Program-made: the position numbers and the translations under genes
Notes under the pieces: model-generated
What the model saw: the letters and a program-made list of their open reading frames with translations, nothing else
Database searches by the model: none
What the model was told of the DNA's origin: nothing
Part shown: positions 1 through 26,026 of the stretch, piece by piece
Position numbering within the stretch: position 1 is the first letter of the stretch
Layout: every line of letters begins with the position of its first letter
Origin: Schmidtea polychroa
Taxonomy: Eukaryota
Length of the DNA stretch: 64,000 nt
NCBI GenBank assembly: GCA_044892525.1
Contig: CM097885.1
Span: 177,506,001 to 177,570,000 of the forward strand
Direction: 5' to 3'

Positions 1-655
1 CATTTATACTCTGCCACTACCTTCCATTTATACTCTGCCACTACCTTCCATTTATACTCTGCCACTACCTTCCATTTATACTCTGCCACTACCTTCCATT
101 TATACTCTGCCACTACCTTCCATTTATACTCTGCTACTACCTTCCATTTATACTCTGCTACTACCTTCCATTTATACTCTGCCACTACCTTCCATTTATA
201 CTCTGCCACTACCTTCCATTTATACTCTGCTACTACCTTCCATTTATACTCTGCCACTACCTTCCATTTATACTTTGCCACTACCTTCCATTTATACTTT
301 GCCACTACCTTCCATTTATACTCTGCCACTACCTTCAATTGTACTCTACCATTACCTTCCGTCTAAACTCTATCTTCCATTACCTTCAATTGTACTCTAC
401 CATTACCTTCAATTGTACTCTACCATTACCTTCCACTACCTTCCATTTATACTCTGCCACTACCTTCCATTTATACTCTGCCACTACCTTCCATTTATAC
501 TCTGCCACTACCTTCCATTTATACTCTGCTACTACCTTCCATTTATACTCTGCCACTACCTTCCATTTATACTCTGCTACTACCTTCCATTTATACTCTG
601 CCACTACCTTCCATTTATACTTTGCCACTACCTTCCATTTATACTCTGCCACTAC
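1..655. repeat. 24-bp tandem repeat (CATTTATACTCTGCCACTACCTTC)n, continuing off the left edge
   Basis: Directly visible near-identical units, with a short run of diverged units around 337-430. Confidence 0.97.
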
Positions 656-9100: not shown

Positions 9101-12100
9101 CTAGCTATTGCGATAACGCACCCCGATAACACGATGCCATCACTCCCACTACCAGACGGACATTTTGGTAGAATGGTAGGAGAAGTGATGTACACATACC
9201 AGTGTACCAAGACGTATGCACGAATGCCAGAAAAATCCATACTACCCGAAAAGAGATGTGCAAATGAATTAGAAATTCGTTATAAAGGACAAAATCGATT
9301 CGTCCAACCAGTCACTAGAATCATGAATCCAGTGGGTTTCTACCCAAATCTCTTTAACTGTTCTAATGCATACGGACCTTTGTATGAAAGACCCGATGGG
9401 AAATGGATGATGTTACCGGGAAAAACCATATCCGAGGAACCCAAGAAATTTGGATTAATAGAACTCGCCACAGAGCTGGATTTCAAACCTATAGACGTGT
9501 CAAACGGTGGTATGTATTCCCCAGAAGATCTAGAAACAGCACGACTTAACGTACTCTTCCCAGCCAGACGAGAATCCATTTTGTCTAATATGGTAACAAT
9601 AACTGGGGGCACAAACTATCAATCAGGCCCGAATTACGAGCTGCTATTATCGCCAGACCATTTTCAACAAGCTACGTCAAACATGATGAAAGCAATGTGG
9701 GGAAGATTCTTAGTTTTTGGACAAATGATGGCCGGGATATTAGGGATCATACTCATAATTCAGATAGTTAGAGTAATACTAACACAAATGTTAGCTTGTT
9801 TCGATATATACAAGCGGGAAAAGAAAGTTAACTGGAAAATGATAGTAGGTTTCTTACCATTTTTAGCTAAAACCATGGTATTACATGGCCACTCAAAAGA
9901 CATTCATCGGATAAAGCGATTGATTAAAGTATTAACAAAGATTAAAGGAACCGACGAAGAAGTAGGCAGACGATTCCGGAAAGTAATGTACGATGAAGCA
10001 ACAAGACGACAATTGAAAAAGAATAAGCCAAAATTCTTGGACCGATTTAGAAGCCAATCATCTAACAGCGATAGTGACGACGATGATAACGGGAACGATA
10101 AATGTCTTTATCCAAACAGAAACCCAAACGAAAAACCATTGGAAACGGCACCATATTGGGAAAAGGAAAAGACAAACACCTGGATCGCCAATGGAAGCTA
10201 TATACCACCGGATATCGTGGGACCACAAGCAGCTTTGACCATGACACAAAATATGTATCCGCAATTACCGAGTCAACCCGGTATGCATTATATGCCGACA
10301 CGACGTACCAAAAGTGTAGATCAAGCAGATGACGTAAGAACAATCGCAGCGATGAGTCTACCTGGAGGTCCAGCAGTAACAGTCATGATCCAAATCAATG
10401 GTAAAGAAACCAATGCTATGATAGACACAGGAGCTAATGTATCAGCGATAGCGATTAATCAAATCCCCAGTAAACACTGGAAAGATATCGAATCAACAAC
10501 AATTCACATCATAGCATGTAGTAAAGAAACAGTGGACGTGGTCGGAAGATGGTGGACTACATTGAGATACCAGGACAACGAAATTGAAACGTATTTGGCA
10601 GTAATACCAAAACTTAGCGTACCATGCATAATCGGAACGGACCTGATGCCAGAATTATTAAAAGAAGTCGTAATAGACTTAACAACTATGTGTTTAAAAG
10701 ACAAAACCGGTAGAATATGCAAAATGAATGCAGTAATCAGATGTCCAGAAAAAATAATAGTACCAGCAAAATCGCAGATGATTTGTCAGATAAAAGTGGA
10801 TACGGGTATGGAAGGAGAAGTTATCTTTGAACCCAGCAAGTCATTCGAAAAGCGACGAGAGTTACCACTCGCAAGGGAAATAATAACAATAAACCAAGAA
10901 GGAGTGATACCGCTCAACATCACGAATTTCGAAGAAGAAGACAAAATCATTTATGAGAACGAAAAATTGGGAAGATTGACCCCAATGATGGACATAGAAT
11001 TACCGAAAGTGACCAACGAGATGATCAAAGATGATGAATTATGGACAATAGATAGTATGTTGTTGACGAATGATGAAAAGAAAAAATTGCACCGATTGTT
11101 GGTGGAATATAAAGATATATTCGCCATCTCAGATTTAGATTTGGGTACATGCGATGTTACCCTACATGCAATACCCCTCATAGATGAAGCTCCAATTGCA
11201 TTAAGACCATACAAGCTAGCAGAAATGCAAAAAGAAATAGCCGAAGCAGAAGTACAAAAGATGCTGGACGCAAAAGTAATCGAACCGAGTTGCTCACCTT
11301 GGCAATTCCCAGTGGTCATGGTAAAAAAGAAAGATGGCACCCAACGATTCTGTATCGATTATCGGAAGTTAAACGCAGTAACCAAGAGAGATACCTATCC
11401 ATTGCCGGACATCAATGAGATGTTATTGATGTTGCAAGGGGCAGCATATTTTACTTCTTTAGATCTAAAAAGTGGATACTGGCAGATTAAAGTCAAAGAT
11501 GAGGACAAGGAGAAAACAGCTTTCACGTTGGGACGAGATCTATATCAATTCAGGAAAATGCCATTCGGACTGACCAACGCACCAGCATCATTTCAACGGT
11601 GTATGAACTTTGTCACTCATGGAATCAAACAATGTATGGTATATATTGATGATTTACTAATCTATTCAGCGACATTTGAACAACATCTGGAAGATATCCG
11701 AAACGTATTTATTAGATTAAGACAGTGGAAACTCAAACTCAAACCATCAAAATGCGATTGGGCAAAGGAAAAAGTCACGTTTTTGGGACACATAGTGTCA
11801 GCTAAAGGAAAGGAGCCAGATCCAAGAAACATTGAGAAAATAAAAACATGTCCAGCACCGAAAACGGTCACCCAAGTTCAGGAATTTCTAGGATTATGCG
11901 GATACTATCGCAAATTTATCAAAAATTATGCAGGAATTGCAAAACCAATCCAGGAATTAGTAAAGAAGGACATTTCGTTCATTTGGGGGAAGGAACAACA
12001 AGAGGCGTTTGAAACGCTGAGAGACAAACTAATCGAAGCACCTATCCTAGTACACCCAGATTTTAAGAAGCCATTTCTATTGGCAACGGATGCAAGCGGG

Positions 12101-12976
12101 TACGCGGCAGGCGCGATTCTGGGACAATTAGACGATGAAGGAAAAGAGAGAGTAATCGGGTATTACAGCCGAACATTCAAAAAGCACGAGAAGAACTATT
12201 CGGTAACGGAACGGGAAGCATTGGCTATAATACAAGCTATCAAACACTTCCGATATTTACTATGGGGACATGAGATATGTATAACCACAGATCATCAACC
12301 ATTGGTGTGGTTAGGGCAACATAAAGAAGCGTCCAGTAGGCTGATGAGATGGGCCATGCAATTGCAAGAATACTCCCCATTTATAAAATTCAAAGCGGGA
12401 AGAGCAAATGCCAACGCCGATTGTATGTCAAGATTTATTTTTCCAGAGTTGGTGGATTCCGAAATGCAACGCATATGCTTAATAGTAGCGGAAGATTTGG
12501 ATTTCTGTCAATTGCGAAAAGACCAACAAGAGGACGCGGAATTAAAACAAATTATCGATTATGTAAAAACCGGAAAGACAGATGTATATGCGAAAGACCA
12601 AAAATTAAAAGAACATATGGATAAACACCGACACCGATATATTATAGAGAAAGATTGGTTGCTGATAATGGATGGGGAAAAACGATTAATGTGTATACCG
12701 GAAAACCGACGAAAAGAGTTACTAACGCAATATCACGATGGGAGATTGGGAGGACATATGTCATCGAAAAAGACGTTAGCAAGAATGAAACAGAAATATT
12801 TTTGGCCTACGTTAACTGAAGATGTAACCGAATGGGTAAAAAAATTGTCTAACTTGTGCAACCAGGAAGAATACTGGATCGAAATGGAAAGCACCTTTAA
12901 CGCCAATGCCAGTACCAATAGAACCAATGACAATGATATCCATGGACGTAGTTGGTCCACTACCAGAGTCAGATAA
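3194..12976 (+). CDS. Polyprotein part 1: Gag - UBL x3 - Bcl-2-like - envelope glycoprotein - protease - RT - RNase H - integrase N-terminus
   Basis: 3,260-aa ORF with the motifs listed in the sub-features. The frame is also open for 115 codons upstream of the ATG (2849-3193). Confidence 0.95.
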   Translation: MTNVVKTDEYKEKFRGEPFNGNANKLATFITNFEVYITVCGWTPEAISKRMPLFLCDSALEVYLEAKERDTKLEKWEDIKTFLKKTFGASKPINQALGELANRKQRANESITLYASELRRLAKKAMNGKLPEENLIGYFIEGLRREEVRASVGCQMCKTLEEAIDWATRCELHLPAQMNIMQEEGRIATAIAKADNGDNNNQEPKMNQFIPGAHQIFKPPQGRSNGNNGNRNNPNNENNFNNRRNMNDNKQCRTCGKPGHWDRDCYRNSNCNRCGRRGHTENVCQLRGCFNCGQPGHISRDCRERGQQQRPPQRNNNYIANPQRQSNPNEGKQMNVMQEISQMKQMMQQMMRPRQESAPQQTQNIRMMRSTENLNNYEVHQHVQEWQRLQAEEERIKQERNQQRQEQPLRINMMKLVKDMKSQYCYNYGKNPRVVPMTEPEKVKETTTEMKTENSTTILKGNQRIQKIFWKKIKDKIEKEHNKAKTETEDENNKSKEQTSQLNHQMLQESESEETTIFERKKLKRVPRMRNLQINMMKRTKDVASSDEEEDYVSSLGGEILQLNEISEPPKGEIKEEESENEITSESEDEDIEIKLRKAREEAIKQVAEILPVVVRNQEFIDVIPFRRFVQKVMKLERNEKDLIPNEEKSIIKKYMEKMKQADTTRYVIKIGTSRGLERMWIKNTVTDELFDWIREHLGSSRKKEYLYQYQGEQIKPDMHLVDALIWPGETQILKLHKEKQPANLYDWAKDAKAEYDFNIKLKLEQIKQCTLRRNLDKLIKQIQEQVEDNWDLLITRRAPAMYELMSRLRDTEMLRMSDWRTINLIHKYGRLKETQPQRLEITIWLPNEEKRRIKMSNQSTVDDLVSKINQEITEKVRSESSDGMVDDVVMMYDKIILRAEDDTSLSEMGMWDNHQIIRIVPMDEFRTRDVTYQKEIRDRMKTLYQKSTEIIEIHQQWLKEKELQGKITKLNTRSCRRTPWERVWNAENKEWEIRKGIFVETDIGETESESEEEAEEPPEYEEEAREQTSDDEGETDVTSESENEARHIHAMRKKEREYADMDGEEAIEAREREEKERYKQLGDILAMGAKNQKRQVVALANIILKTSENIHNLRGMAKAIEEYRQYNEWYPEQLEQIIRKWRNQEWAQDTQERYHIRIKYPDKSIEELEVHPTTKIRELKKKLAYETPFHLQLFGKSLDDNADVGITPMRLEETNVLTMAETLGKPLKRKSKITKPTKGSLSTPSPNKAPSKSNETEEVEEIILEDSDDEPGERSPLLVRWPTGAEMWTNNQPSTSYQQPTKLNIKEIIDNTTETETDEQFQKQREPTKVTPEGQTDKIIDEWNEWLRNNDSSLPRTDNERNPNYENTREAGTMMEKRAKGRPKKQGEKSEFKTKEQLKQEQGQVRLEKLDKIVWDLKEAQPTIERGEKWIRELLKDMLIITNPQLRRLWQRKVASTEARQLWHTISGIIPKLIKEKTKTTKTDWDETKRVIEQLTTNANDDEHHLVVITYLMYNLMGLAARKIPNKQFANHVEMTVSIIENTIEPHIIRAGGWKRLIQAPRKNEQERSMQVRLKKLLNELEWELPMKDPASRKASINSLMMTMMIWMLCTSGATGFTIYDCDNMIMRDKYSLRDIEECRQASPNKLDIVRTKVTYHVYQESDFIRTQARECVVSKKVLAYYCGQYSYSTLILPGLDKEIVSIQREDCKELFRTGALKMHNGVTIHGQTGMIKTESVYVSGKVKSSDGSCNGGTYTIRGEVISGVVVIESYTVELKEYEAQFDANNYQMKTNPACKATENVCRTGVSTIIYEANTQKCRLQMLKSALFNEVKGEIYENENDEDGNDRVRMRNGKPMPPSPREKRLSTQKTPTALITDDPDLGMRFIKEKETTKCDSIVYKTNYAGIYMSRQIIDRAVGKIATEDVKLYLYANNKMDFLFHRGQTTLQKVYYDLIQNDCSLNKEILKTKLAIAITHPDNTMPSLPLPDGHFGRMVGEVMYTYQCTKTYARMPEKSILPEKRCANELEIRYKGQNRFVQPVTRIMNPVGFYPNLFNCSNAYGPLYERPDGKWMMLPGKTISEEPKKFGLIELATELDFKPIDVSNGGMYSPEDLETARLNVLFPARRESILSNMVTITGGTNYQSGPNYELLLSPDHFQQATSNMMKAMWGRFLVFGQMMAGILGIILIIQIVRVILTQMLACFDIYKREKKVNWKMIVGFLPFLAKTMVLHGHSKDIHRIKRLIKVLTKIKGTDEEVGRRFRKVMYDEATRRQLKKNKPKFLDRFRSQSSNSDSDDDDNGNDKCLYPNRNPNEKPLETAPYWEKEKTNTWIANGSYIPPDIVGPQAALTMTQNMYPQLPSQPGMHYMPTRRTKSVDQADDVRTIAAMSLPGGPAVTVMIQINGKETNAMIDTGANVSAIAINQIPSKHWKDIESTTIHIIACSKETVDVVGRWWTTLRYQDNEIETYLAVIPKLSVPCIIGTDLMPELLKEVVIDLTTMCLKDKTGRICKMNAVIRCPEKIIVPAKSQMICQIKVDTGMEGEVIFEPSKSFEKRRELPLAREIITINQEGVIPLNITNFEEEDKIIYENEKLGRLTPMMDIELPKVTNEMIKDDELWTIDSMLLTNDEKKKLHRLLVEYKDIFAISDLDLGTCDVTLHAIPLIDEAPIALRPYKLAEMQKEIAEAEVQKMLDAKVIEPSCSPWQFPVVMVKKKDGTQRFCIDYRKLNAVTKRDTYPLPDINEMLLMLQGAAYFTSLDLKSGYWQIKVKDEDKEKTAFTLGRDLYQFRKMPFGLTNAPASFQRCMNFVTHGIKQCMVYIDDLLIYSATFEQHLEDIRNVFIRLRQWKLKLKPSKCDWAKEKVTFLGHIVSAKGKEPDPRNIEKIKTCPAPKTVTQVQEFLGLCGYYRKFIKNYAGIAKPIQELVKKDISFIWGKEQQEAFETLRDKLIEAPILVHPDFKKPFLLATDASGYAAGAILGQLDDEGKERVIGYYSRTFKKHEKNYSVTEREALAIIQAIKHFRYLLWGHEICITTDHQPLVWLGQHKEASSRLMRWAMQLQEYSPFIKFKAGRANANADCMSRFIFPELVDSEMQRICLIVAEDLDFCQLRKDQQEDAELKQIIDYVKTGKTDVYAKDQKLKEHMDKHRHRYIIEKDWLLIMDGEKRLMCIPENRRKELLTQYHDGRLGGHMSSKKTLARMKQKYFWPTLTEDVTEWVKKLSNLCNQEEYWIEMESTFNANASTNRTNDNDIHGRSWSTTRVR
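3947..4099 (+). other. Three CCHC nucleocapsid zinc knuckles of Gag
   Basis: CRTCGKPGHWDRDC, CNRCGRRGHTENVC, CFNCGQPGHISRDC (CX2CX4HX4C). Confidence 0.97.
5189..5404 (+). other. Ubiquitin/SUMO-like domain 1 within the polyprotein
   Basis: RYVIKI...LFDWIREHLG...YLYQYQGEQIKPDMHLVDALIWPGETQILKL resembles the SUMO-like F.F.G..I....T...L.M..GD.I pattern; no terminal GG. Confidence 0.55.
5708..5959 (+). other. Ubiquitin-like domain 2 within the polyprotein
   Basis: LEITIWLPNEEKRRIKMSNQSTVDDLVSKI...VVMMYDKIILRAEDDTSLSEMGMWDNHQIIRIV follows the beta-grasp pattern (TV..L..KI; DD.SL.E.G). Confidence 0.7.
6653..6853 (+). other. Ubiquitin-like domain 3 within the polyprotein
   Basis: IRIKYPDKSIEELEVHPTTKIRELKKKL...LQLFGKSLDD aligns by eye with ubiquitin LEVEPSDTIENVKAKI...LIFAGKQLED. 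Confidence 0.8.
7484..7873 (+). other. Bcl-2-like helical domain (clear BH2, degenerate BH1)
   Basis: IENTIEPHIIRAGGWKRL vs Bcl-xL LNDHLEPWIQENGGWDTF; upstream RVIEQLTTNANDDEHHLVVITYL occupies the position of TVVEELFRDGVNWGRIVAF but lacks NWGR. Confidence 0.72.
7982..9883 (+). other. Envelope-like glycoprotein of chuvirus / BEL-Pao env type (class III-like), in frame inside the polyprotein
   Basis: Signal-like SINSLMMTMMIWMLCTSGATG then FTIYDC..YSLRDIEEC, YYCG, DGSCNGG, REKR (8777-8788), GEVMYTYQC, CANELEI, FVQPVTRI, GGMYSPEDL; TM at 9707-9793; second hydrophobic stretch at 9833-9883. Family assignment is from recalled motif pattern, not a search. Confidence 0.8.
10370..10700 (+). other. Retroviral-type aspartic protease
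   Basis: AMIDTGANVS (D at 10424) and CIIGTDLM. Confidence 0.93.
11190..12440 (+). other. Reverse transcriptase and RNase H (Ty3/Gypsy)
   Basis: SPWQFPVVMVKKKDG, RFCIDYRKLN, DLKSGYWQI, MPFGLTNAPASFQR, YIDD at 11642, LATDASG, TDHQPL, NANADCMSR. Confidence 0.98.
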
Positions 12977-15900
12977 AGGAAATATTTACATTCTGGTGAT
13001 CACAGACTTTCTTACGAAATTTCCAGAAGCATTCGCGATGCCAGACCAAAAAGCTAAAACAATCGCAAAAATTTTGGTAGAAGAGATATGCTGCCGATAT
13101 GGAACACCAAAACAGATATTAACCGATCAGGGAACTAATTTTATGAGTGAAATAATGAGCGAAGTAACAAATTACTTCAAAATAGCAAAGCTAAGAACAT
13201 CTCCATACCACCCTCAAACCAATGGGATGACGGAAAGATTTAATGGAACACTTATACAAATGCTATCAAACTACGTCGATCGTCACCAACGAGATTGGGA
13301 CGAATATATAAACCTATGTCTTATGGCGTACAGAATGTCGATTCACGCATCAACGAAAATGAGCCCATTTAAATTAATGTACGGAAGAGAGTGCAACATG
13401 CCAATGGACCTGGAATACCAACCACCGATATCGCAGTATATGGAGATCGACGATTATGTTACGAAATTCAAGGAAAGAATGCAAGAAATTTGGGAAACTG
13501 CGGGATTGAATATCAAGTTCTACCAGGAAAGTTATAAAGATTTACACGATCGAAAGAAAAACGTGAAGCAACATACGTTTCAAACAGGTGATTGGGTAAT
13601 GATAGAAACCCCGGAATTAATTCCAGGAACCACAAAAAAGTTACAACGCAACGGAAAAGGACCATATGAGATCTTATTCGTAGGCGAAACCAATGTAAGA
13701 GTGAAATTGATAAATAATCCATTCACCAGGCCAATATACGTGAACGTGGCACGATGTAAATCAATTCCAAAAACCGCCACCAGTCAACCAGAAGGTCGAA
13801 CATTAACCACACGTTCGCAAACATACAGAATGAACATGATGCAACAACTCGCAGAACCGATCACCGGACGATTGGGTATCCAACCATCAGAAGCAGAAAA
13901 GATTGTAAAAGAGGTAAAAATTAAAATACCTGGATGGGCAAAAGATCGATTAGATTTCGAAATATTAGGAGGATTATTGACGATGATCGAAAATTATGCG
14001 AACAGAGAGAGGACACATCCGTTATTGCGAGTAGTCAAAAGCCAATGGCCAATATTATTTACAATAACAGATCATTACGGAGACACACCATTACACAAAC
14101 TCATGAAAGTAGGTAACAACGAGCAAATACTAGAAACAATAGAAGCATTTCACGACTGCAAGCGATCAACAGAACAAACAAACAACCAAGGTTACACACC
14201 ATTAATGATAGCAGCAAACAGAGAAAAAACCAAAGACATTATAACCGCATTACTTGATACTGGATCAAAAATAACTACACAAGACCACGAGCGGAAAAAT
14301 GCACTACATCATGCTATCGAAGGGAAAAGTACCGAGGCGTTCACGTCATTGATGGAACTACTATCATATGAGGACAATCGGGAAGTCGGAAACATGTATG
14401 ATGGATTGTTAACAGCGATCAAAGAAAAACTGACAACAATTACCGGAATATTAATTACATGGAGAAATCCAATTCAAAACGATTATATGATCAACGTAAA
14501 CGAAGCGTTCACGAGAGGAGAGAACACGCTGATGAGAGAAGCTATGAAAGGACATCATTTATTCGAAATTCCGAATCAATTACTAGAACGAGGGATAAAA
14601 TTCACAAATCATAAAGACGAACAGTTAGCAAAAAAGCGAATCGACACATTCGAAAAATCCCTATTCCAATTTACTAACCAAGCACGAAATAAATATTGGG
14701 AAACGGTAAGTGTGTTATATATGATGGACACAATGAATAACATCCGCGAGAATTACCTGGATATTATCCAAATACTTACAGCAGAGGAACGAATCAATAA
14801 TCCAAGCGGAAAGAAAACGAAAATAAGGTATGGGAAATCAAGGGAACCAAAATTGACAACGAACCAAAAGGTCACAAATAACGTCATCGAAACAAAATCA
14901 ATGAGTATAGATCAGGAGGCAATAATACGCAAAGCGAAAGAGGTATTCTTTGAGGAAATGCTAGAGTTGTCAGACGAAATAATATTGTCAAAAATAATAA
15001 AAGCTGTACATACATACGCAAGAGATCAAACCACGGGTTTAGATATTGGGAAAATCAAAACCTTCTTGCCTCGAGCATTTACGATGGTAACGAAGGATTC
15101 CAGAACACCCCTACAACAAGCAATACTAGCAGCAAAAGAAAATAGAGCAATAACGATCATGAGAATCCTTGGAGATATGGGCGAGGAAACCAACACGAAA
15201 AATGAACAAGGCGAAACCGCCATGATGTACGCAGCTATAACGAAAATACACCCAAAAACACTCCACATACTACATCAATCGGGATCGAGACTAGACGAAA
15301 GGTCCAATGAAGGAAATTCCACCTTGGACTGGGCAACCATACAGCCAAACTTAGAAATGATCAGATTCATTTGCAAAAATGCGACAAAAGAAGAAGTTGA
15401 AAATATATGCAAAAACACATCTCAATTTCAGTGGAATACGGTACGGAAAAATCTGGAAGCAATGAAATTATTAATAACATGGAGAATACCACAAAGTAAT
15501 AAATATGCGATAAATATAAACGAATTCTACGAAAACGGAGAAAACGCGATGGTAAAGAATACATTAACTAAAGGGGGGACACCAAAAATTATTTTAATAG
15601 TACTAAACAGAGAAGACCTCAAATTCACGCAAAATCAGAGCGAGCAACAAAGAATTGGGAAACATCGTCGCATTCAATTAAGAGAATTAGTCAAAGAATG
15701 GAATAGAAAGAGACACGCTGCAACGGGCAGAAAAGAGTTTGAATTCGAAGCAAAATTAGCAAGAAACAGAGTGCTAACAGCATATCGCAGATTATTGAAC
15801 GATATAAATGTCGAGGACGACATTTTAAACGACAGCGGGGGAGATAAACACGATGACAATAACGGAAAAGGCCGAAAGGAGGATAAAGAGAAAAGAGAAC

Positions 15901-17048
15901 CGGAGGAGGATAAACCGGAAAACAAGGATTCGGATACGAAAAGAGAGGGAAACAGCCCGGGAACTAAGACCAAAGAGGAGGAAAAACCGAATAATGGAAA
16001 ACAGAGGGTATGCCTACCTTTCACTAACAAAGAAATAGAGACAAATATGATATTAATGATAATTATGCTTACCATGATAGAGTTAGTAACAGCTCATGGA
16101 GGGACGAGAACGATAAAAGAAACCAAAGAAGCGGAGAATCAAGATAGCAATGAGGACGAACTAAAACAAGAAAAGAAAAAGCAAGCACAAGAGCAGCAGT
16201 GGGATTTAAAGGAAGAATGGGACTTAAAGGAAAGGTGCATACTAGGAAGATGCATGTCTAGAGCGTATCAGAAACTAGTACTGATAAATGAGGACACAGA
16301 ACCAATAACAGAAGTAAGAATACAAGAAGCATACCGAAATCGAGACGGGAAAAGAATAACGAACGTTAAAGGAAAAGAGGTACACCTAGGAAAAGGTGGC
16401 GAAGTAGTAATAACGCAGCTCCAACCAAGAAAAGAGCACAAAGTCTGTATTTCAAGATTAGGACCGGGTGAGAGATGCCATCAATATGTGACGCAGCAGC
16501 AGCCCCCGAAGGAATATACGGTTTGTATCTGGAGGAACGAATCAAAAAGAGAATGCCGACGATACCCGGGGAAAAGAGGAAAGAAAAGAAAAAACCACGA
16601 CGAAAAGGACGAAGGAGGAAAGCACAAGAAAACTGGCGAGGAAGCTCAGGACAACTATGTTTCGGAGGAAGAGATGGAAAAAATACAAAAGATGGCAAAG
16701 GAGGGTATGAACGAGGAAATAGCAAGAATACGAGAGATGATGAAAGGGAATGGCAAAAGAGGGAACGAGAAAAGTACAGAAGCAATATCAACATTAACAA
16801 ACAAGGAAAAACCAGAGAGTATAAGCGTGAAACAGATGATGTGGATCAGTGGGATAATAATAACAGGGGCATTCCTAATCATAACGGGGGGAACAATAAA
16901 AATAATTAAAGACAAACGACATCGCGGAGAACTAGAAATGACCCGAATCCGAAACTTCCAACATCGAGTGAAACGACCAAGTGATATCAAACAAGAACAG
17001 TGGGTGGAGGCCTGGAACGTTCAGCGCCCTCCAAACTCACGTATATAG
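12843..17048 (+). CDS. Polyprotein part 2: integrase (HHCC completion, DDE core, GPY) - ankyrin blocks - C-terminal signal/TM module
   Basis: Frame reads NCLTCATRK..MDVVGPLP..TDQGTNF..NGMTERFN..GPY. It joins part 1 if one A is removed from the 7-A run at 12838-12844, giving one 4,617-aa ORF (3194-17048). Confidence 0.92.
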   Translation, partial: NCLTCATRKNTGSKWKAPLTPMPVPIEPMTMISMDVVGPLPESDKGNIYILVITDFLTKFPEAFAMPDQKAKTIAKILVEEICCRYGTPKQILTDQGTNFMSEIMSEVTNYFKIAKLRTSPYHPQTNGMTERFNGTLIQMLSNYVDRHQRDWDEYINLCLMAYRMSIHASTKMSPFKLMYGRECNMPMDLEYQPPISQYMEIDDYVTKFKERMQEIWETAGLNIKFYQESYKDLHDRKKNVKQHTFQTGDWVMIETPELIPGTTKKLQRNGKGPYEILFVGETNVRVKLINNPFTRPIYVNVARCKSIPKTATSQPEGRTLTTRSQTYRMNMMQQLAEPITGRLGIQPSEAEKIVKEVKIKIPGWAKDRLDFEILGGLLTMIENYANRERTHPLLRVVKSQWPILFTITDHYGDTPLHKLMKVGNNEQILETIEAFHDCKRSTEQTNNQGYTPLMIAANREKTKDIITALLDTGSKITTQDHERKNALHHAIEGKSTEAFTSLMELLSYEDNREVGNMYDGLLTAIKEKLTTITGILITWRNPIQNDYMINVNEAFTRGENTLMREAMKGHHLFEIPNQLLERGIKFTNHKDEQLAKKRIDTFEKSLFQFTNQARNKYWETVSVLYMMDTMNNIRENYLDIIQILTAEERINNPSGKKTKIRYGKSREPKLTTNQKVTNNVIETKSMSIDQEAIIRKAKEVFFEEMLELSDEIILSKIIKAVHTYARDQTTGLDIGKIKTFLPRAFTMVTKDSRTPLQQAILAAKENRAITIMRILGDMGEETNTKNEQGETAMMYAAITKIHPKTLHILHQSGSRLDERSNEGNSTLDWATIQPNLEMIRFICKNATKEEVENICKNTSQFQWNTVRKNLEAMKLLITWRIPQSNKYAININEFYENGENAMVKNTLTKGGTPKIILIVLNREDLKFTQNQSEQQRIGKHRRIQLRELVKEWNRKRHAATGRKEFEFEAKLARNRVLTAYRRLLNDINVEDDILNDSGGDKHDDNNGKGRKEDKEKREPEEDKPENKDSDTKREGNSPGTKTKEEEKPNNGKQRVCLPFTNKEIETNMILMIIMLTMIELVTAHGGTRTIKETKEAENQDSNEDELKQEKKKQAQEQQWDLKEEWDLKERCILGRCMSRAYQKLVLINEDTEPITEVRIQEAYRNRDGKRITNVKGKEVHLGKGGEVVITQLQPRKEHKVCISRLGPGERCHQYVTQQQPPKEYTVCIWRNESKRECRRYPGKRGKKRKNHDEKDEGGKHKKTGEEAQDNYVSEEEMEKIQKMAKEGMNEEIARIREMMKGNGKRGNEKSTEAISTLTNKEKPESISVKQMMWISGIIITGAFLIITGGTIKIIKDKRHRGELEMTRIRNFQHRVKRPSDIKQEQWVEAWNVQRPPNSRI
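14070..14607 (+). other. Ankyrin-repeat block 1
   Basis: DHYGDTPLHKL, NNQGYTPLMIAA, DHERKNALHHAI, GENTLMREAM. Confidence 0.9.
15096..15629 (+). other. Ankyrin-repeat block 2 (internal duplicate of block 1)
   Basis: DSRTPLQQAI, NEQGETAMMYAA, SNEGNSTLDWA; tail LLITWRIPQSNKYAININEFYENGEN...KFT mirrors ILITWRNPIQNDYMINVNEAFTRGEN...KFT of block 1. Confidence 0.88.
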
Positions 17049-17208
17049 AAAGGAATATGACTGTATATAATTGTAAAAAGTAAGTATATTTTATGTATAT
17101 AACAGTACTATATCTTTATATAAGCGCGGTATCAATATTATACAATAACGGGAATCATAAAATAAAATTAAATTTACATAAGAGTTGAAAAGTGTATATA
17201 AATTAAGA

Positions 17209-17568
17209 ATGGATCAAGGAAATAACGAAATGAACCACAATACAGTAACTGAAGAATTATGGAAGCAACAATGTGCCGTATTAGCACAATTAGTGTCCAA
17301 TTTGCAAGAACAAGGACTGACGATGCACAGAAACCTAATCGAGAGTATGAACAGAGGATTTAGTTATTTGAAGATAATTGAAGACCAGAGGTTAAAAATC
17401 GAACAAATGCAAAGAGAAATGGAGAGGATAACCCAATATAGCCATAGACAGGAAATTGAACTAGAAAGAATGATGGAGGAAGCAGAACAGACAGAAATAG
17501 AAGACTGGTCGGAATGGCTAATGAATAGAGAGGAGAGCGGACACGAAGCCGACTCTTCCGAACCCTAA
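17209..17568 (+). CDS. Accessory ORF A: small coiled-coil protein with acidic tail
   Basis: ATG at 17209 (the track start 17185 is TTG); heptad E/Q/L-rich helix; same compositional bias as pol. Confidence 0.6.
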   Translation: MDQGNNEMNHNTVTEELWKQQCAVLAQLVSNLQEQGLTMHRNLIESMNRGFSYLKIIEDQRLKIEQMQREMERITQYSHRQEIELERMMEEAEQTEIEDWSEWLMNREESGHEADSSEP

Positions 17569-17653
17569 ACCAAACCTAGCTTAAAATGTAAATAATTGTA
17601 AATAAAATATCGAACCTGTATCGATAAGAACTATATGTACATATAATTATAGA

Positions 17654-19042
17654 ATGGATAAACGACAAAGAGAAGAGTTCAGAGAGATTGTCGAGCAAAT
17701 CCGAAAATCTACAACGATCAGAATACACAAACATGTTATGTGCGGAATATGTGAAAAGTTACTAAAAGAACCCCACCAAACCCTATGTGGATGCAGAGTA
17801 TGTAAGGAATGTATCAGTGAAGCAATAAAGAATAGACCACAGTGGTGCCCGGTGTGCAAAGAGACACTAATATCGAGTTTAGAAGACACTAACGAGGATA
17901 AAGCCGCCGTGAAAGACATGTTAAACACCAACCTGGGATGCAAAAATGCCCCATGCGAATGGAAAGGAGTAATATGGAAGGTAGTGCAACATATGGGGGA
18001 ATGTATGTATAGAATCGGCCAGTGTGAAAGGTGCCATAAAACCATTCGAGCAAGCGAAGAAAAAGAGCATCATAGCCAGTGTGAAGAGAGACTAGAAAGA
18101 TGTGAACATTGTGGAGAAATAGATACGTGGAAAAATCTCACCATCAAACATCACAATGTCCAAGAAGAAAAGGTATGTGCAGAGTTCAGTGGGGAATGCC
18201 CGAACGGATGCGAGGAAGGGAGAATAATAAAAATAGCCCAACACTTAAAAGAAAGTGAGAAGAAAAGGATGATATGTGTACTAGGTAAATGGGGCTGTCA
18301 GAAACTATTACACCGAGGAGAGTTACCACATCATTTAGTAGAAAATGCTTCAACCCACGCAGAAATGTGGTCGACTACGTTACAAGAAAGCGATGAGAAA
18401 GTAAAACAAATGGAGATGGAGATAACATCGTTGAAAGTGTTAGTCAAAGAACTACTAGAAGAAAGGGAAGCGTTCGAAGAAGCCCGAGCAAACATAAAGA
18501 TGCAAATGAACCGAATAGAAATCAGTAATAATCAGGCCAAGGAGCTACACCAGAAAATACGGGAAATAAATCTAAATGAAGTAATACCAACAGCACCCTA
18601 CATATGGAAAATAACGGAAGTAAAAGAAAGAATACGAAAAGCAAAAACCGGAGAAGAGACAAGAATAACAAGTCCTGCATTCCATTCTTGGAAAAATGGG
18701 TACAAGATGAAAATAAGGATATATCCCAACGGAGATGGAACCGGATTGAATACACATTTTTCGATATTTTTTCTATTATGTAAAGGGGAATATGACGAAA
18801 TAATAGAATGGCCATTCCAGGCAAAAATCGATATCACAATGATGAATGACCAAAGCGTCCACGAACAAAGCTTTAAAACGACGGGAACCCAGCTGTGTTA
18901 CCGGCGACCTATTGATGAGGAAGGAGCAGCATCGGGAGCGCCTACATTCATCTTGCAGCAAAAGATGGAAGAGATGACGAGAAATGACACAATATATATA
19001 AAAATGACAGTACGAAGGGAAGGAAAGGGTAGAACGGAGTAA
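17654..19042 (+). CDS. traf: Accessory ORF B: full-length TRAF-family protein (RING - TRAF zinc fingers - coiled coil - MATH), intronless
   Basis: RING CGIC..CGCRVCKEC..CPVC; several C/H fingers; MATH core YIWKIT..SPAF..GYKMKIRIYPNGDGTG.NTHFSIFF..KGEYD.IIEWPF..GAPTF. Confidence 0.95.
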   Translation: MDKRQREEFREIVEQIRKSTTIRIHKHVMCGICEKLLKEPHQTLCGCRVCKECISEAIKNRPQWCPVCKETLISSLEDTNEDKAAVKDMLNTNLGCKNAPCEWKGVIWKVVQHMGECMYRIGQCERCHKTIRASEEKEHHSQCEERLERCEHCGEIDTWKNLTIKHHNVQEEKVCAEFSGECPNGCEEGRIIKIAQHLKESEKKRMICVLGKWGCQKLLHRGELPHHLVENASTHAEMWSTTLQESDEKVKQMEMEITSLKVLVKELLEEREAFEEARANIKMQMNRIEISNNQAKELHQKIREINLNEVIPTAPYIWKITEVKERIRKAKTGEETRITSPAFHSWKNGYKMKIRIYPNGDGTGLNTHFSIFFLLCKGEYDEIIEWPFQAKIDITMMNDQSVHEQSFKTTGTQLCYRRPIDEEGAASGAPTFILQQKMEEMTRNDTIYIKMTVRREGKGRTE

Positions 19043-19242
19043 CCCATCGAATAATGTTGTATATAATAACCTGTATATATCGGCGTATATATCCAATAAA
19101 ATATTATATAATAATGGTATGAAAAACCCTAAATACGAAAACCCAAAAATGATGCGAAAAATTTCCAAAGGGCCAGTAACCAATAAATAAATTTTTTTTT
19201 TTAAAAAAAAAAAAGAGATTAATCTATATCAATGATTTAGAA

Positions 19243-20298
19243 ATGACACAAGAGAGAATAACCGAAAATACGATAGCCCCAACCAATACCCACAAGACAC
19301 AAATTCCCAGAGAATATAACGAAAAATGGAACAAAGTAATGTTCCAACTAACTAACCTCACCCATAACTACATCGAAGAAGCTAGAGAAGATGAGAACAG
19401 TAAATATCAATGGCTAATCCACAATTTAAGAGAGGAAGCCGAAGCATGTAAAAGAGCATCAAAATGGGCATCATTAGAAAATACCCGCCAAGAAGCGCAC
19501 AGCCACTACTTAAAGCAGCTAGTGCAGGAAGCGAGAAAGAGACTTACCGATGAGAACACCAAGCGCGAAGCGGAAAAGCAAATAGAAGGAAGGAAAATGA
19601 TGCACTTAGTGGCAGAAGCGAGAAAATGGAAAAGACAAAACAGTGAAATGAAAAAAGAGATGAAAGAATTGCCCATGAGACTCGGATATGAAAGCGAACA
19701 AGGTAAATGGGAGGAGAATTTAATAATAAAGGAAGAATTGAAACGGTTGAGAAAGGTCGCCGCCCGAAGTCAAACCTGGCAAACAAAAGCTATGGAGTTT
19801 GAGCGACATTTGGCAATGAAATGCGACATAAGAGAGCACGAGAACGCCGCAATGGAAGAGATGATAACCCAACAAACAGGACGGATTGTGGAATTAGTAA
19901 ATCAGGTCGAAGAGATGAAAAGAGACCTTAATGGATTACAAGGATCGCTGGAACAAAGAAACATGGTCCTAGCGGGAAAAAATAAAAAATTAGAAAACGA
20001 GAGGAAAATGTATACCGAAAATATTAAAAACTTAGAAATAGAAATTGAAAAATGGAAGGGCGACGAGAAAATCAAGGCCCTAGACAAACAAATAGAGGCG
20101 AAAGACGAAGAGACAAGGTATCTCACCTATCTGCTCGACGAGGAATTGAACATCACTCGAGCTCTAAGAGACGAAATTAATGAATTGAGAGCTCAAATTC
20201 CCCAATATTACCTACCCTATGACCCTATTGCGATACAGTTGCATCCCGCGGTCGATAGTGATGAAGGTTATGTGGGACAGGAAGAAACCTTCGTATAA
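19243..20298 (+). CDS. Accessory ORF C: 351-aa coiled-coil protein ending in ETFV
   Basis: Long uninterrupted ORF, E/K/R-rich heptads, no recognisable catalytic motif. Confidence 0.75.
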   Translation: MTQERITENTIAPTNTHKTQIPREYNEKWNKVMFQLTNLTHNYIEEAREDENSKYQWLIHNLREEAEACKRASKWASLENTRQEAHSHYLKQLVQEARKRLTDENTKREAEKQIEGRKMMHLVAEARKWKRQNSEMKKEMKELPMRLGYESEQGKWEENLIIKEELKRLRKVAARSQTWQTKAMEFERHLAMKCDIREHENAAMEEMITQQTGRIVELVNQVEEMKRDLNGLQGSLEQRNMVLAGKNKKLENERKMYTENIKNLEIEIEKWKGDEKIKALDKQIEAKDEETRYLTYLLDEELNITRALRDEINELRAQIPQYYLPYDPIAIQLHPAVDSDEGYVGQEETFV

Positions 20299-20467
20299 GG
20301 GTGATAAAAGATAAAAACAAAAAAAAAATCGGGACGTACATCCCAAACAAAAAAATTAAAGTATTATAAAAGTACTCAAGGGACTGTAACCCGAACTATT
20401 AAATTTTATATAAATGTATATGTATAAGTCGCACTATAGCGCACCATTAACTGTACATATTATAGAT

Positions 20468-20920
20468 ATGAAAATCGAGGAAATAATAGAAATTACGAGC
20501 GACGTAGAAGAGGGAGAGATTGAGGCAGAAACAACAAAAACACAAACGCTAAAGGCCGAGTTACGGGAAGAGAAGTACGAAAACGAGAGACTAGTAAACA
20601 AATATATAGAAGACCGAAAAATGATTAAAATACTTAAGAAGGAGTGCGAAGTGCTAGGAGAAATAAAGAGAGAAGTCGAAGAGAAGAATGAATGGCTGCA
20701 AGAACAACGAAAACGAGGAAGAAATTGGGAAAAGATTGCAGAAGAACTATGGCAAGAGAGGGCAAGCTTCAAGGCAGAAGAAGTAATCCAGGATTATTGG
20801 AAAACAGAGGCGAAAGAACGCCAAATAACTATAAATGAATTAAATCAACAATTAGAGGAAAAACAACGAGAAAGTGAGGAAATGAAGAAATGGATTCGCA
20901 AATACCAAGAGATCGAGAGA

Positions 20921-20951
<31 letters not shown>

Positions 20952-21184
20952 GAAACCTTTCGCAGGAAAACGAACAAGATTTCCTACAAATCGAACTAAA
21001 AAGGAATCTCGACAAAAAACGGGAAGAAATTAGAAGACTGAAAAAGGAGATAAGGCACATGAAAAGGGAGGTCCGTGAAAAGAACAGACAGTTGGAAATG
21101 CTGCCCGAGTTAAGACACAGAGTCATTAAAGCGGAATCCACCTTGATGAGAATCGCCGAAAATAACCCAAATCAGAACCATTAA
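20468..21184 (+). CDS. Accessory ORF D: coiled-coil protein with a poly-Q run
   Basis: ORF 20414-21184; likely start is the ATG at 20468 after an acceptor-like TTATAG; (CAA)n gives Q9. Confidence 0.7.
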
Positions 21185-21239
21185 ATTAAGGGTCATTAAA
21201 ACCAATTGTAAATAAACATAATGAATGTATAATAGTATC

Positions 21240-21884
21240 ATGCGAGGCGAGATGATGATAACAATGGCGGTATTGATGATTCTGATGGAGAACAAACAAT
21301 TAAACGCCCAACCGAAAATCGTACGAGATTACCGCAATCAAAATCAAGAACCTAAACAAGAATCCGGCAAATGCACATACCCTATGACCGTAAAAACCCA
21401 TATCATCCAAACCATTCAATCAACCCGATCCCACATCAACAACATCCAAACAATGTGTAAAAAGAATCCCATTTGTAAAATGATAAACAAACAAATCTTC
21501 GAACAAAGCCAACAGATCGACCAGTTGGAACAACAAATGCAACAAGAGAATTTTGAAAATCTTGTAGAAAAGCCAAAACCACCTCCCGAAATCAATGACA
21601 CCCATTATCTCACATACGTGGTGATCGCAGAAACCCTCCTCCTATGTCTACCAATACTCATGATAATTTACGAAGTTAGAAATAGATGTAGAATCTCGAC
21701 AGCAATAAGAGTAACCTCGAACAGAAATCCTCAAGAAGTGCCGCTGACAAATCTTAACCCAACCCCATTCCGACCTCGAATCCCGAGTAACCAACCAATC
21801 CAGCCGAATTCTAACAGTCAGACCTATCTCAACATCAATACCCAAACCAACCAACAGCCGCCAGCAGAAGCATCAAATAGTTAA
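21240..21884 (+). CDS. Accessory ORF E: predicted type I membrane protein
   Basis: Signal-like MMITMAVLMILM, Cys-containing helical ectodomain, TM LTYVVIAETLLLCLPILMIIY, P/N/Q-rich tail. Confidence 0.72.
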   Translation: MRGEMMITMAVLMILMENKQLNAQPKIVRDYRNQNQEPKQESGKCTYPMTVKTHIIQTIQSTRSHINNIQTMCKKNPICKMINKQIFEQSQQIDQLEQQMQQENFENLVEKPKPPPEINDTHYLTYVVIAETLLLCLPILMIIYEVRNRCRISTAIRVTSNRNPQEVPLTNLNPTPFRPRIPSNQPIQPNSNSQTYLNINTQTNQQPPAEASNS

Positions 21885-22439
21885 CAGTCCATAAACTCTA
21901 ACTCAAACATTTGTGTTATCATATGTGGAAACTTTTATTGTATATAAAAACTATCACCTTAAGTGATACTTGCTTGGTCTTGATTTGACCTATATCTTAG
22001 AATAAAAACCTTTTTTTTTGTATAATTGTTTCGATATATCCTTTTTATGAATGCATGAAGTAAGATAACTATGCAATTGCGGGACGCAATTTTGATGGGT
22101 CCCCGAGTGATTTGTTGGGCTGAGCCGAAAGATAGCTGGGAAATCAGGTTAAACTTAACTAAAGAAAAATAAAAAATAAAATAAATAGATCGAGGAATAA
22201 AATAGAATAGAACATAAGAAAAGTAATAATTAGAAAATAAGAATTAAAACAAAAAACATAAAAATAAGAACAATTAAATAGGACAATAGAATGACGAAAA
22301 ATAACGTAAAAGGTAGTAGATAATAAGGAAATTAAGGAAAATAAATAAAAACATAATTTTAATAAAGAAAATAAGAAGAAATAACCCAAAAACAAGGAAA
22401 ATAAATTAAATGAATAAAATAAGGCGGTACTCAATTCTG

Positions 22440-22527
22440 ATTGGTCCGCATAAACAAAAAATACCTATATAAGTAAGCAGCAAATTCACTATAATCAATG
22501 TTAAAATCAAACCAATTATAGGTAAGA
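22440..22527 (+). promoter_or_regulatory. Promoter-like cassette: reverse CCAAT, TATA box, then a 5' splice donor
   Basis: ATTGG at 22440, TATATAA at 22466-22472, AG|GTAAGA at 22520-22527; a 32-bp CCAAT-containing direct repeat at 22493 and 22546. Confidence 0.4.
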
Positions 22528-24710
22528 ATAGTATTAACTATATGAAATCAATGTTAAAATCAAACCAATTATAGGTACTCGACAATCAGGAAAACCAAAC
22601 CATACTCAGATAACTATTAGGGACAGTTCTATAGACTACTCATTCATATAACCGATTGGATCAGTTTATATTTCGGCTCCGCCTTTGGAACTACAGAATT
22701 TTTCAAATAATCAAGTAAGGATGTATTGCTATTATGAAATTTGTTTTTGGAGGATTTAAATATTTCTATTATATTAACCTAACTTTTGAATAAAAACTTC
22801 TCCATTCGGTTTCGATCTTTTAACGATTTTATGGTTCATAAATTAATTTACAGGTCAATGAATTATAAATATTTATGTTATGTTTTGTCATCAAATGTAT
22901 TGATTATGCTAAAATTATTTGTTTTGAGAAACGTGGAGTTGAGGAGACCCACGCCATGGTATGAGGAGCCTTCGGGAGCTCAGCCGGCGGGTGTGGATCT
23001 CTTCAATCACGCAGCTGACGTGGGCCGGAATGTGGGGGCTTCCTCACGGGTCCGTCGCTGAGGGAAATAAAATGCTGCAAGCACGAGTTTAAAGTGTAGA
23101 GGAATATATTCCAATATTGAAAAGTAGAGCAAATCTGAATTGAAAATGACTGAGGTGGCTACAAACTCTTCCAAGTATGAGAATCTCATTTTCTTAGGTA
23201 CTATACTTTGAAATTTTCGTCTAACATCATGAATTAGTCTAGATCGACTACTCACTTCCGTGATACTCTATCATCTTGCGATAAATCCCCTTTTTCGTCA
23301 AAATTCATGTCAATTTTCATCTTAGCTGATAGAACCCAAGAGCTAATACATTCACTCTGATGTTATGCAGTAGTATAGGAAGTATATATGGGAGATCACT
23401 GAACGCTTTTATTTACTAAAAAGATATTTGGAGGAGTACGTTATTGTTTTTATCAAAAGCGCCTTAACTCTTTCTGAAATCCCCAATAGCCGTAATCTGA
23501 AGTCCGTTCAGTAAAAGACCCTCTGGCCTCATAACACAGTAAACATACAAGGAGAATTTACAAAAGTATTTAATTAAAAAGATAAAATTTCGTAAAAAAT
23601 TCTTTATTTTCATTAAAAAATTATAATTCTGAGTTACCAGTAGTAGGAGCATAATAATCATTTCGGGAAGTTACCCTTGATAGATGTCGCCAAGATGAGG
23701 AAGGGCTTGAGCGAGTTGATAAAATCTCCACCGGACAGGATATTCTGATGTAAAGCGAGAGAGGCAGTATAATAAAAAATTTTCCAAATTTTCGTGTTTG
23801 CTGAGAACTAAACAGTAGATTCATATCGGAGCTGAATGATTAAGTTCCAAAAATCGATGTAATCCAAGTTCGGCAGCATAGATAAAATATGAACATGTAC
23901 AGTGAGAAGGTATAGTCTGTCTGTAAGTATGCAGTGAATGAGATTGAGCAATCACCTGCAGGTAGAATCACATGTACAATAGCGAACAATTACATATGGC
24001 TTAGTCGATGTGATACTCATGCTGCCGGTACGGTAGCAGTGAATTCACGATTTAATCATCGATAATGAGAAAGTCGAATCCCATTGCACACACATGGTGA
24101 ACACCAACTTTTCTGAGAGATCTGAACACTAAGCCAGTTAACGAGGAGGCATGCAACAGATGGTTCGCATCATACATGTCATACAACTAGAATAGAAACT
24201 AGACTAGTCTAACTTATCGGCAGAGTGATTGATCAAACAGAGCAAAGTCCATTTGACTGTAAGGTTTTTGTAATCGCACGCATTTACAATTAACTCAAAT
24301 TAGAGTATTATAATCACGAATAAACTCAAATCTTTTAATTAATTTATTATCCCGATGTATTGCACCTGTCTGAATTGTTTTGCTGATAGTAAAGTCGAAT
24401 CTGGTCACGCTCATGTATTGACAAGTTTTCTTAATCCGCAATAAAATTATCATGTTGGGCAAAAAAGGGGGGGGGGAGAATTAATTTGTTAACCCGTAAA
24501 CATATAATTACTTTACGGATGTAATATCGATCAACAGGAAGTTTCGCTAACAGTCATTCCGTTTTCTTCTTGTCGGTCATTTCAACCCATGAATGTAATG
24601 TAGGGAATTTATGAGCCTTAATAAATAATTACGCTACTCTGATGGATTAGTAGAGCTAGCCAATTTTCGTCTTATCTCTATTATTCTTTCTTCATTATAG
24701 CTATCAAAAG

Positions 24711-25454
24711 ATGTTGCCAAGCACGAAATCGCCCATCAAACCCTGCTTCTCCTGCTCGGATAAAAATACCGTAATCCGAGAATTACAGGCCCAGATCGGT
24801 TGATATAAAAAGAAGATCGACGATCTGGAAGGTACCTGGTTTAGCCCAGTACAAATGAAGGAAGTTCAAAAGAAATTGTACCGCAGTGAGCATTGTCGCG
24901 ATGCTTTGATAAGCGAAAGTAGAGCTCAGCGTAGCCTAATCAAAGAGCAGTCCGAAGCTCTACATAAAGTTTACGTTCAAGCCGCTACAACCCGAAGGAT
25001 TGTTAGTATTCCGATTAAAGAAGCGGACAATGTCTTCCCCGTTCACCATGAACCTTCATTTAGTTCGCCACCCTTGTCGAAAAGATCTTGTCAGGAATGT
25101 GTGGAGGCCGACCTCTCCCCCAGGCCATCGGACGTACCTACTACCGGCACTGGCAAGGTATTGCATTCAGCCACGACGTCCTCGGCAATCTTGTCTGCCA
25201 ACCCCTCAAAACCTAAGCGCCGCCAATTGTCCAGAGCGGAGCGTAAAAAGCGCCAACGTGAACGAGCAATTGTCAAACAACGAGAACTATCTGTCAACCA
25301 CCCAAGTGCTTCGAATGATCCACCCGTAACGATCGATCTGACCGTAGGAATCCCAGGGCGAATCATATCTGCCGCTGGTGTGACTTGGGAGGAGAATGCC
25401 TCCGAGTTTTTTGATCTAGATGAGCTATTGGCGGATGCGGGGTGGGAGAAGTGA
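24711..25454 (+). pseudogene. ORF inside the putative LTR: CxxC, coiled coil, basic NLS-like segment, acidic-aromatic C-terminus; one in-frame TGA at 24801
   Basis: ATG 24711 is in frame with track ORF 24855-25454; a strong acceptor-like TTATTCTTTCTTCATTATAG lies 10 nt upstream. Confidence 0.5.
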
Positions 25455-26026
25455 TGGCCGCAACACGATGCAACCGTGCAGGGTGCGAATGGACAAATAA
25501 ACTATCTTGACTCTTTTTCTTCTTAATCTATTCTCCACCAAGTGTACTTGTTATGTAGTGTATAATTCTCTAATGTATCATGATAATAAAATAAAGGAAT
25601 ATTTGGTTAAATTTTTGTTGTTGTTTAAATCTAACTAGCTGTGATAAAGGTTCAGCGTAGTGTTCGCCAAGCGAGAGTAAAGTTTGAGTTCGAGAGGCAG
25701 TGGTCAATTTTGTGCCGAATAAGGGGTCAGGGTAGAGGGAGAATCTGATGAGGTAAACACACGTAAGTCCTTCCATCGGCCGTCAGAAAAGGGAAGTCGA
25801 GGCCTCAGTAAGGAGTAGTCCTAAGGTAGGGGCTCACCTGCTTACTATAGTCTCGCCGACATAGCACATTTCCAACGTGAAGCAATTCGCGGGTGCTATG
25901 TTGGAGGGCAAGTTGTGCGGGGTCCTGCTCCGGGTTGACACGGGCGTATGTAGCGTAATGATATGGGCACGCACCCCCTAGACAAGGACGTAGATTGAGC
26001 AGAGTCAACCAAGCACTACCCCAGCA

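Follow-up and report, generated by a model that had tools for sequence, protein, structure and literature searches.

How does a retroelement with a single promoter express eight or nine genes? The question is raised by a stretch of 64,000 nucleotides from the planarian Schmidtea polychroa (NCBI GenBank assembly GCA_044892525.1, contig CM097885.1, positions 177,506,001 to 177,570,000 of the forward strand), here called the window, the first 26 kb of which are one long terminal repeat (LTR) retroelement. It is a young Burro-type giant Gypsy element, a kind known from planarians, and carries a 3' accessory array of five open reading frames (ORFs), A, TRAF, C, D and E, between its second polyprotein frame (ORF2) and its 3' LTR. 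The element family and its accessory ORFs have already been published. How one LTR promoter serves eight or nine genes is, however, not addressed in section 7 of PMC6431247, which is silent on the expression of the accessory ORFs, on acceptors, on poly(A) signals and on Pumilio elements. A literature search, outside which stood Grohme et al. 2018 with its supplements and Rossi 2014, returned no paper on the expression signals of Burro accessory genes. A first-pass annotation of the window had noted that each accessory ORF starts just behind an AG resembling a splice acceptor, and had proposed that the genes are expressed either by alternative splicing from one LTR leader or as a polycistron resolved by spliced-leader (SL) trans-splicing. 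Here we investigate these junctions in the element and its relatives. Some form of splice-acceptor use at these AGs is highly probable, and the sequence evidence favours, indirectly, the cis route from the LTR leader over SL trans-splicing.

The accessory array is a real, selected feature. All five ORFs are under purifying selection, with ratios of nonsynonymous to synonymous change (dN/dS) of 0.07–0.36 against a lineage that is 94% identical. The AGs are at 17206–7, 17651–2, 19239–40, 20464–5 and 21234–5, and the spacers that hold them are 55–200 nt long, all as the annotation had described. Its count of an AG before five of five starts is also right, but alone it is modest evidence, because 28% of the element's ATGs carry an AG 1–4 nt upstream; the strength is supplied by other families. 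The starts chosen for D and E are each the second in-frame ATG, behind upstream ATGs at 20414 and 21225. The choice is supported for D, since in the 94%-identical lineage that second ATG is the only one to open the ORF; the ATG at 20414 is not kept in other lineages. For E the start is ambiguous.

Related families were found by searches with profiles of the fusion protein and of TRAF. The window element belongs to family A. Family B, a second giant family, has a reverse transcriptase (RT) 86% identical to that of family A and six accessory ORFs in the same order, among them a BIR-RING gene, but its accessory proteins are only 24–34% identical, so the junction signal has outlived the sequence around it. 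A third Burro-like family contributed one accessory ORF. Taking one copy per family, an AG lies 0–4 nt before 12 of 12 array starts (five in the window, six in family B and one in the third family), against a background of 179/524 and 207/529 element ATGs (34–39%; P 3e-6 at p0 0.35). The AG is a YAG at 10 of the 12, against 13–14% in the background. If the upstream ATGs of D and E are used instead, 10 of 12 starts have the AG (binomial P about 9e-4 at p0 0.35, calculated by hand). As a negative control, an unrelated array of tightly packed ORFs has the signal at none of its eight starts. Among six family-A lineages the TAG is kept while its distance from the ATG drifts, over 1–2 nt for TRAF, 2–6 nt for C and 2–9 nt for D, which fits a splice acceptor better than a translation-start context.

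If these are acceptors, what would they be joined to? A GTAAG donor, with T-richer sequence behind it, lies 77–295 nt past the TATA box in all six giant-family LTRs examined. In four of the six leaders there is no ATG, bar one within a few bases of the predicted start and two within a predicted short intron of family A. In the window copy a 29-nt unit is duplicated (22493–22521 and 22546–22574) around a first donor at 22522. Upstream of gag there are 689 nt without an ATG, where 9.4 would be expected, and this stretch opens at a T-rich acceptor. The layout is the same in family B, where 526 nt are ATG-free and the acceptor is just past the last ATG; a compact relative that lacks a 3' array also has an ATG-free leader, but there it begins at the LTR TATA. 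Two further ORFs, both broken in the window copy, have acceptors of their own in sister copies: a 161-aa RING ORF after the 5' LTR, whose ATG stands 2 nt behind a T-rich acceptor, and a 247-aa ORF borne by the LTR behind a pyrimidine-rich acceptor. A conserved 5' donor past the promoter is accompanied by a predicted acceptor before the array ORFs and before the RING, LTR and gag ORFs as well.

The spacers carry a second signal. The annotation had seen TGTA(T/C)A within 20 nt of four of the five starts (17193, 17636, 20452 and 21226), which none of 5000 dinucleotide shuffles matched. The motif is real, but a Pumilio response element anchored to the preceding stop is a better reading of it than a piece of the acceptor. 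The five spacers contain TGTA[ACT]ATA 10 times, where shuffles give 0.52; 902 nt of spacer hold 11 copies, and the sense strand of the element's remaining 24 kb has one. In 28 related spacers there are 54 copies, with A (25), T (24) or C (5) at position 5 and G once, and three on the reverse strand. The element lies 10–25 nt past the upstream stop in nine of 11 spacers, against 2.4 under rotation; a second class, just before the AG, comprises the copies that the annotation had noticed. None of 23 host TRAF-like genes has TGTA[ATC]ATA after its stop. The host Pumilio protein has the canonical eight recognition triplets (SRQ-NYQ-CRQ-NHQ-CRQ-NYQ-SNE-NYQ), presumably a code matching UGUAHAUA. From this pattern the spacer motif is likely a Pumilio element. 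It equals the consensus reported for PUM, UGUAHAUW/UGUANAUA (PMC5758885), exactly, on the sense strand and in predicted 3' untranslated regions (UTRs); unlike ordinary response elements, these putative sites stand at a fixed 13–22 nt behind most of the successive stops of a mobile element. In planarians, stem cells and brain express Pumilio (PMC1896013). Two other readers of the motif were considered. CFIm is disfavoured, as the full 8-mer is conserved and planarian poly(A) sites are reported to show no enrichment of UGUA (PMC5068929). A forkhead site was rejected, its GTAAACA form being found 0 times in the 28 related spacers.

Poly(A) signals are the third component. The annotation had pointed to AATAAA in four of the five spacers, and the places are right (17161, 17601, 19095/19182/19186 and 21211), but the count is that of chance (shuffle mean 3.36, P 0.46) and we reject abundance as evidence. 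Position is more informative. AATAAA lies 40–60 nt before the AG in seven of 11 spacers, against 1.95 expected (P 2e-4, in a window chosen post hoc; P 0.046 with a window of 30–80 nt), and the position is kept in spacers 1–3 of most lineages. Planarian transcripts are cleaved 10–30 nt behind the hexamer (PMC5068929), which would place a gene's 3' end roughly 10–45 nt before the next acceptor. A donor-like GTAAGT at 17080–17085 in the window, 31 nt past the polyprotein stop, is kept in five family-A lineages (including L046, L156, L160 and L163) and is not clearly present in family B. From its place it could bound a 128-nt intron to the acceptor of ORF A, or could bind U1 and suppress the AATAAA at 17161.

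These signals can be assembled into a single scheme, in which alternative last exons receive the LTR leader by cis-splicing; we give it an even chance of being right. RNA polymerase II would start in the 5' LTR, and the leader donor, the equivalent of that at 22715, would join one of at least eight acceptors, those of the LTR ORF, the RING ORF, gag-pol and A to E. Each spacer would serve as the 3' UTR of one gene and the 3' splice site for the next. A message would likely end at the next poly(A) signal, making each gene an alternative last exon, and host Pumilio likely binds just past the stop, where it would set a limit on each mRNA's dose or on its cell type. For packaging, the genome would be the RNA left unspliced, with every acceptor and internal poly(A) signal passed over.

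HIV, the foamy viruses and the adenovirus major late unit use one promoter, with a common 5' leader and donor and an acceptor just ahead of each ORF; adenovirus also pairs its acceptors with separate poly(A) sites. The single promoter, the common leader donor and the many ORF-proximal acceptors, here predicted, are the likeness to complex retroviruses and adenovirus. Unlike the complex retroviruses, the window element belongs to the Gypsy group, carries its eight or nine genes without overlap along 25 kb and apparently has a spliced gag-pol message, and the internal poly(A) signals between genes also depart from the retroviral pattern. Another comparison is with Cer1, a Gypsy element of Caenorhabditis elegans that makes a spliced mRNA bearing SL1 (PMC3315495). 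Its accessory protein is expressed through spliced mRNA with or without SL1, and its genome-length RNA must skip consensus splice sites (PMC3315495); Cer1, however, has one spliced product that overlaps gag, whereas the window element has separate tandem genes with their own 3' signals.

Several observations weigh against cis-splicing from the LTR leader. The pyrimidine tracts of the array acceptors are weak (35–60% Y), two of them use AAG, and a branch-like motif is found at three of 11 only. As families A and B inherited their spacers from a common ancestor, the 12 sites are not fully independent. Four of 11 spacers have no AATAAA in the 40–60 nt window, and internal poly(A) sites would cost the retroelement its genome-length RNA. 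Two of three family-B leaders contain an ATG, and the LTR donor must reach over 20–25 kb, passing six donor-like sites in the polyprotein. The RNA evidence consists of contigs from six runs presumed to be RNA, four on window positions 14500–26100 and four on the family-B array. Among the matches listed, none has a GT..AG joint and none breaks off at an acceptor; several contigs run across spacers unspliced, including four on family B that cross whole spacers and one there that crosses an acceptor. Processed genomic copies are also wanting. No copy joined at a leader or an acceptor turned up, against 171 genomic matches: none joins the leader end to a non-G base, and none has a changed −2 base, the two diverged lineages returned by a search before three starts keeping the AG. 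No copy is poly(A)-tailed at spacer 2. The contigs neither show nor exclude splicing, because genome-length RNA or DNA also gives co-linear sequence and contigs drop rare forms, and the blanks among processed copies say little, because the element would not copy spliced messages from which the primer site is missing. In the family-B LTR, run X6 has poly(A)-like loose ends; these were rejected as a poly(A) site, an A-run being present at that place in a genomic LTR variant (L140). The annotation's proposal is partly supported: comparative sequence evidence favours its view that the AGs are splice acceptors serving genes expressed from one promoter, while for neither of its two routes did a junction appear among the contig matches listed or in a processed genomic copy.

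How well do other explanations fare? In the second of those routes, 3'-end formation at each spacer would free the downstream RNA and the host SL would be added at the AG. The array would then be a viral operon of poly(A)-cut cistrons with host SLs and doses set by Pumilio, a planarian stem-cell regulator, with a switch that suppresses all sites for the 30-kb genome; we consider this doubtful, though it is the chief rival. A poly(A) signal followed by an acceptor within 55–200 nt fits flatworm operons, whose median spacing in S. mansoni is 99 bp, and four of the 11 array acceptors of families A and B are exact matches to UUNYAG, the flatworm SL acceptor motif (PMC12582326). Planarians do trans-splice (PMC10899757), the SL1 on a Gypsy mRNA of Cer1 is a precedent (PMC3315495), and flatworm acceptors are often common to cis- and trans-splicing, so both routes may run (PMC12582326). 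The resemblance to the SL operons of flatworms and nematodes covers short intercistronic spacers, a 3'-end signal followed by an acceptor, and UUNYAG-like sites (PMC12582326, PMC5832876), but those operons are of host chromosomal genes, while the element has a conserved cis donor and must also be made unprocessed. The strong LTR donor conserved upstream speaks against the SL route, as does the acceptor of gag, about 1.6 kb past the RING gene, which is far for an intercistronic gap. Flatworm SLs end in AUG (PMC12582326), yet each of the 16 ORF starts examined in families A1, B and 3 retains an ATG of its own, and an SL AUG would be out of frame in 12 of them. No SL-like loose end is among the matches listed in the presumed-RNA contigs, and no genomic copy has the changed −2 base.

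Leader cis-splicing could also operate with the 3' LTR as the common end of every message; the AATAAAs would then be incidental, and the Pumilio elements would regulate or protect mRNAs with very long 3' UTRs. The chance-level count of AATAAA and the four of 11 spacers without it in the window agree with such a common end, as do the contigs that run across spacers, and internal cleavage of the genome RNA would be avoided; the non-random position of AATAAA relative to the AG, kept in spacers 1–3 of most lineages, makes this improbable. Alternatively, each spacer might hold a small promoter, in which TGTA(T/A)ATA would act as DNA, either like a TATA box or as a forkhead site, and the AG would belong to an initiator. 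The spacers are AT-rich and have several TATA-like words, and no junction is among the matches listed, but the motif is strand-specific (54 against 3), varies only at the position degenerate in Pumilio sites, never takes the GTAAACA form, and is anchored to the upstream stop and not to the ATG. Copies 14–18 nt before an ATG are, moreover, generally too near for a TATA box, and spacer 5 has only 55 nt, so promoters in the spacers are very improbable. A shade less credible again is translation of an unspliced polycistronic RNA by reinitiation or internal entry, with the AG-ATG as a translation context or a relic. The only RNA-like evidence, co-linear sequence over the spacers, speaks for it; on the other side, the AG drifts 0–9 nt from the ATG, TAG-ATG is a poor start context, upstream ATGs stand inside spacers, and 660 nt separate the gag acceptor from the gag ATG, a distance at which a translation context would be meaningless.

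The assignment to Burro was made by anatomy and from the published description. Burro/GYPSM1 elements are giant Gypsy-like LTR retrotransposons of planarians, the largest LTR retroelements in section 7 of PMC6431247. Under RNAi of smedwi-2, BURRO1 is de-repressed (PMC8532177). Shared with the Burro/GYPSM1 elements are a length of about 30 kb, multi-kb LTRs, an accessory TRAF and a single Gag-(Bcl-2)-Env-Pol-ankyrin polyprotein, in which gag and pol are separated by a mononegavirus-type fusion protein (PMC6431247). The window element spans about 33 kb, including a 3.3-kb insertion, and has 3.9-kb LTRs; the pair is 99.7% identical, with TG..CA ends and a 4-bp target duplication. PF24664 is at aa 1868–2207, between Gag and the protease (PR), and the cargo comprises TRAF, ankyrin and a weak Bcl-2 match (all Pfam), with RING in sister copies and BIR in family B only. 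Family B also resembles Burro/GYPSM1 in having TRAF inside the polyprotein as well and a BIR-RING gene (PMC6431247), whereas family A has TRAF solely as a 3' accessory ORF and no BIR-RING gene. A 701-base probe returned 467 candidates in the genome, of which 40 were scored, all 98–100% identical. In the window copy the integrase frame is broken; sister copies read through. The features are collected in Table 1.

Table 1. Features of the element in window coordinates (ORF dN/dS against the 94%-identical lineage).
Feature	Position	Strand	Signals and remarks	Basis
5' LTR	upstream of window, L031:2894-6805			
End of ~3.3-kb secondary insertion	1..913		24-nt tandem repeat; splits the 5' RING accessory ORF of the window copy	
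Predicted gag-pol acceptor and 5' UTR	2525..3193	+	T-rich, AG ending 2534, then ATG-free	
ORF1	3194..12976	+	Gag, CCHC, weak Bcl-2-like, mononegavirus-type fusion glycoprotein, PR, RT, RNase H, integrase start	Pfam
ORF2	12906..17048	+	integrase core, ankyrin repeats, hydrophobic segments	Pfam
Spacer 1	17049..17208	+	TGTAHATA 17062, 17094, 17193; AATAAA 17161; acceptor AAG ending 17207	
Accessory ORF A	17209..17568	+	119 aa; no known family	dN/dS 0.27
Spacer 2	17569..17653	+	TGTAHATA 17587, 17597, 17636; AATAAA 17601; acceptor TTATAG ending 17652	
Accessory TRAF	17654..19042	+	462 aa; RING, zinc finger, MATH	Pfam; dN/dS 0.11
Spacer 3	19043..19242	+	TGTAHATA 19058, 19072; AATAAA 19095, 19182, 19186; acceptor TTTAG ending 19240	
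Accessory ORF C	19243..20298	+	351 aa; coiled-coil-like, no family	dN/dS 0.12
Spacer 4	20299..20467	+	TGTACATA at 20452; acceptor TTATAG ending 20465	
Accessory ORF D	20468..21184	+	238 aa; coiled-coil-like, polyQ run	dN/dS 0.07
Spacer 5	21185..21239	+	TGTAAATA at 21207 fused to AATAAA at 21211; acceptor AATAG ending 21235	
Accessory ORF E	21240..21884	+	214 aa; one predicted membrane segment; alternative start 21225	dN/dS 0.36
ORF E 3' UTR ahead of LTR	21885..22112	+	TGTATATA at 21939; AATAAA 22001	
3' LTR	22113..26026	+	3914 bp	
Predicted LTR promoter and leader	22466..22720	+	TATA 22466-73; main donor GTAAG 22715, T-richer sequence behind	
LTR-borne gene	24691..25595	+	pyrimidine-rich acceptor ending 24700; AATAAA 25585, 25590	

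Spacer 4 has neither an AATAAA nor a post-stop Pumilio element. ORF A has a counterpart in family B that is 29–30% identical, and gave only weak, uninformative matches in the ESM Atlas; a protein search for N-terminal extensions of the family-B ORF C found no homologues. The BIR-RING (IAP-like) gene of family B (L147:6368-7546) lies between TRAF and ORF C and has the same junction signals, and the comparison indicates that the array gains or loses whole cassettes. In the third family, a 475-aa ORF behind the polyprotein (L080:1764-3191, minus strand) has TTTCAG 2 nt before its ATG and no clear Pfam match; by eye it has motifs that we take to be DEDDh exonuclease-like, which makes it a candidate only. 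The compact relative is abundant (L094-L096, L099-L100), with LTRs of about 1 kb, one Gag-Env-Pol frame of about 3300 aa and no 3' accessory array. The primer-binding site TGGGGGCTCAGCC, just after the 5' LTR (L031:6806-6830) and the same in family B (L133:5265-5290), is complementary also to the start of the LTR, and resembles what we take to be a tRNA-Pro site. The secondary insertion (window 1-913 and L031:7601-10000) has a T-run at its right end. In the control array (L161:327-4639, L162:8155-9087) most starts are TAAA-ATG; it adjoins an rve integrase and is presumably a Polinton-type element. Many host TRAF/MATH genes are clustered on one chromosome (L103-L132, mostly contig C2). Elsewhere in the window, positions 31052-34051 hold an intronless gene for a 999-aa Diaphanous-type formin (GBD, FH3 and FH2; Pfam), possibly a retrogene, and repeats that are 97–98% identical (48183-48448 and 51684-51951) lie 3.5 kb apart around several minus-strand ORFs, possibly another LTR element.

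The accessory genes (TRAF, IAP-like and RING) are suspected of interfering with apoptosis and ubiquitination in the host. Either outcome at their junctions would be unusual if true: adenovirus-like alternative last exons in an LTR element, or an SL-resolved viral operon, in which a retroelement would run a polycistron of five to six genes on the trans-splicing of its host. In either case one must ask how the full-length genome gets past five or six internal processing sites. The Pumilio elements, for their part, point to a layer of control beside the PIWI-interacting RNAs, in the stem cells that express Pumilio (PMC1896013).

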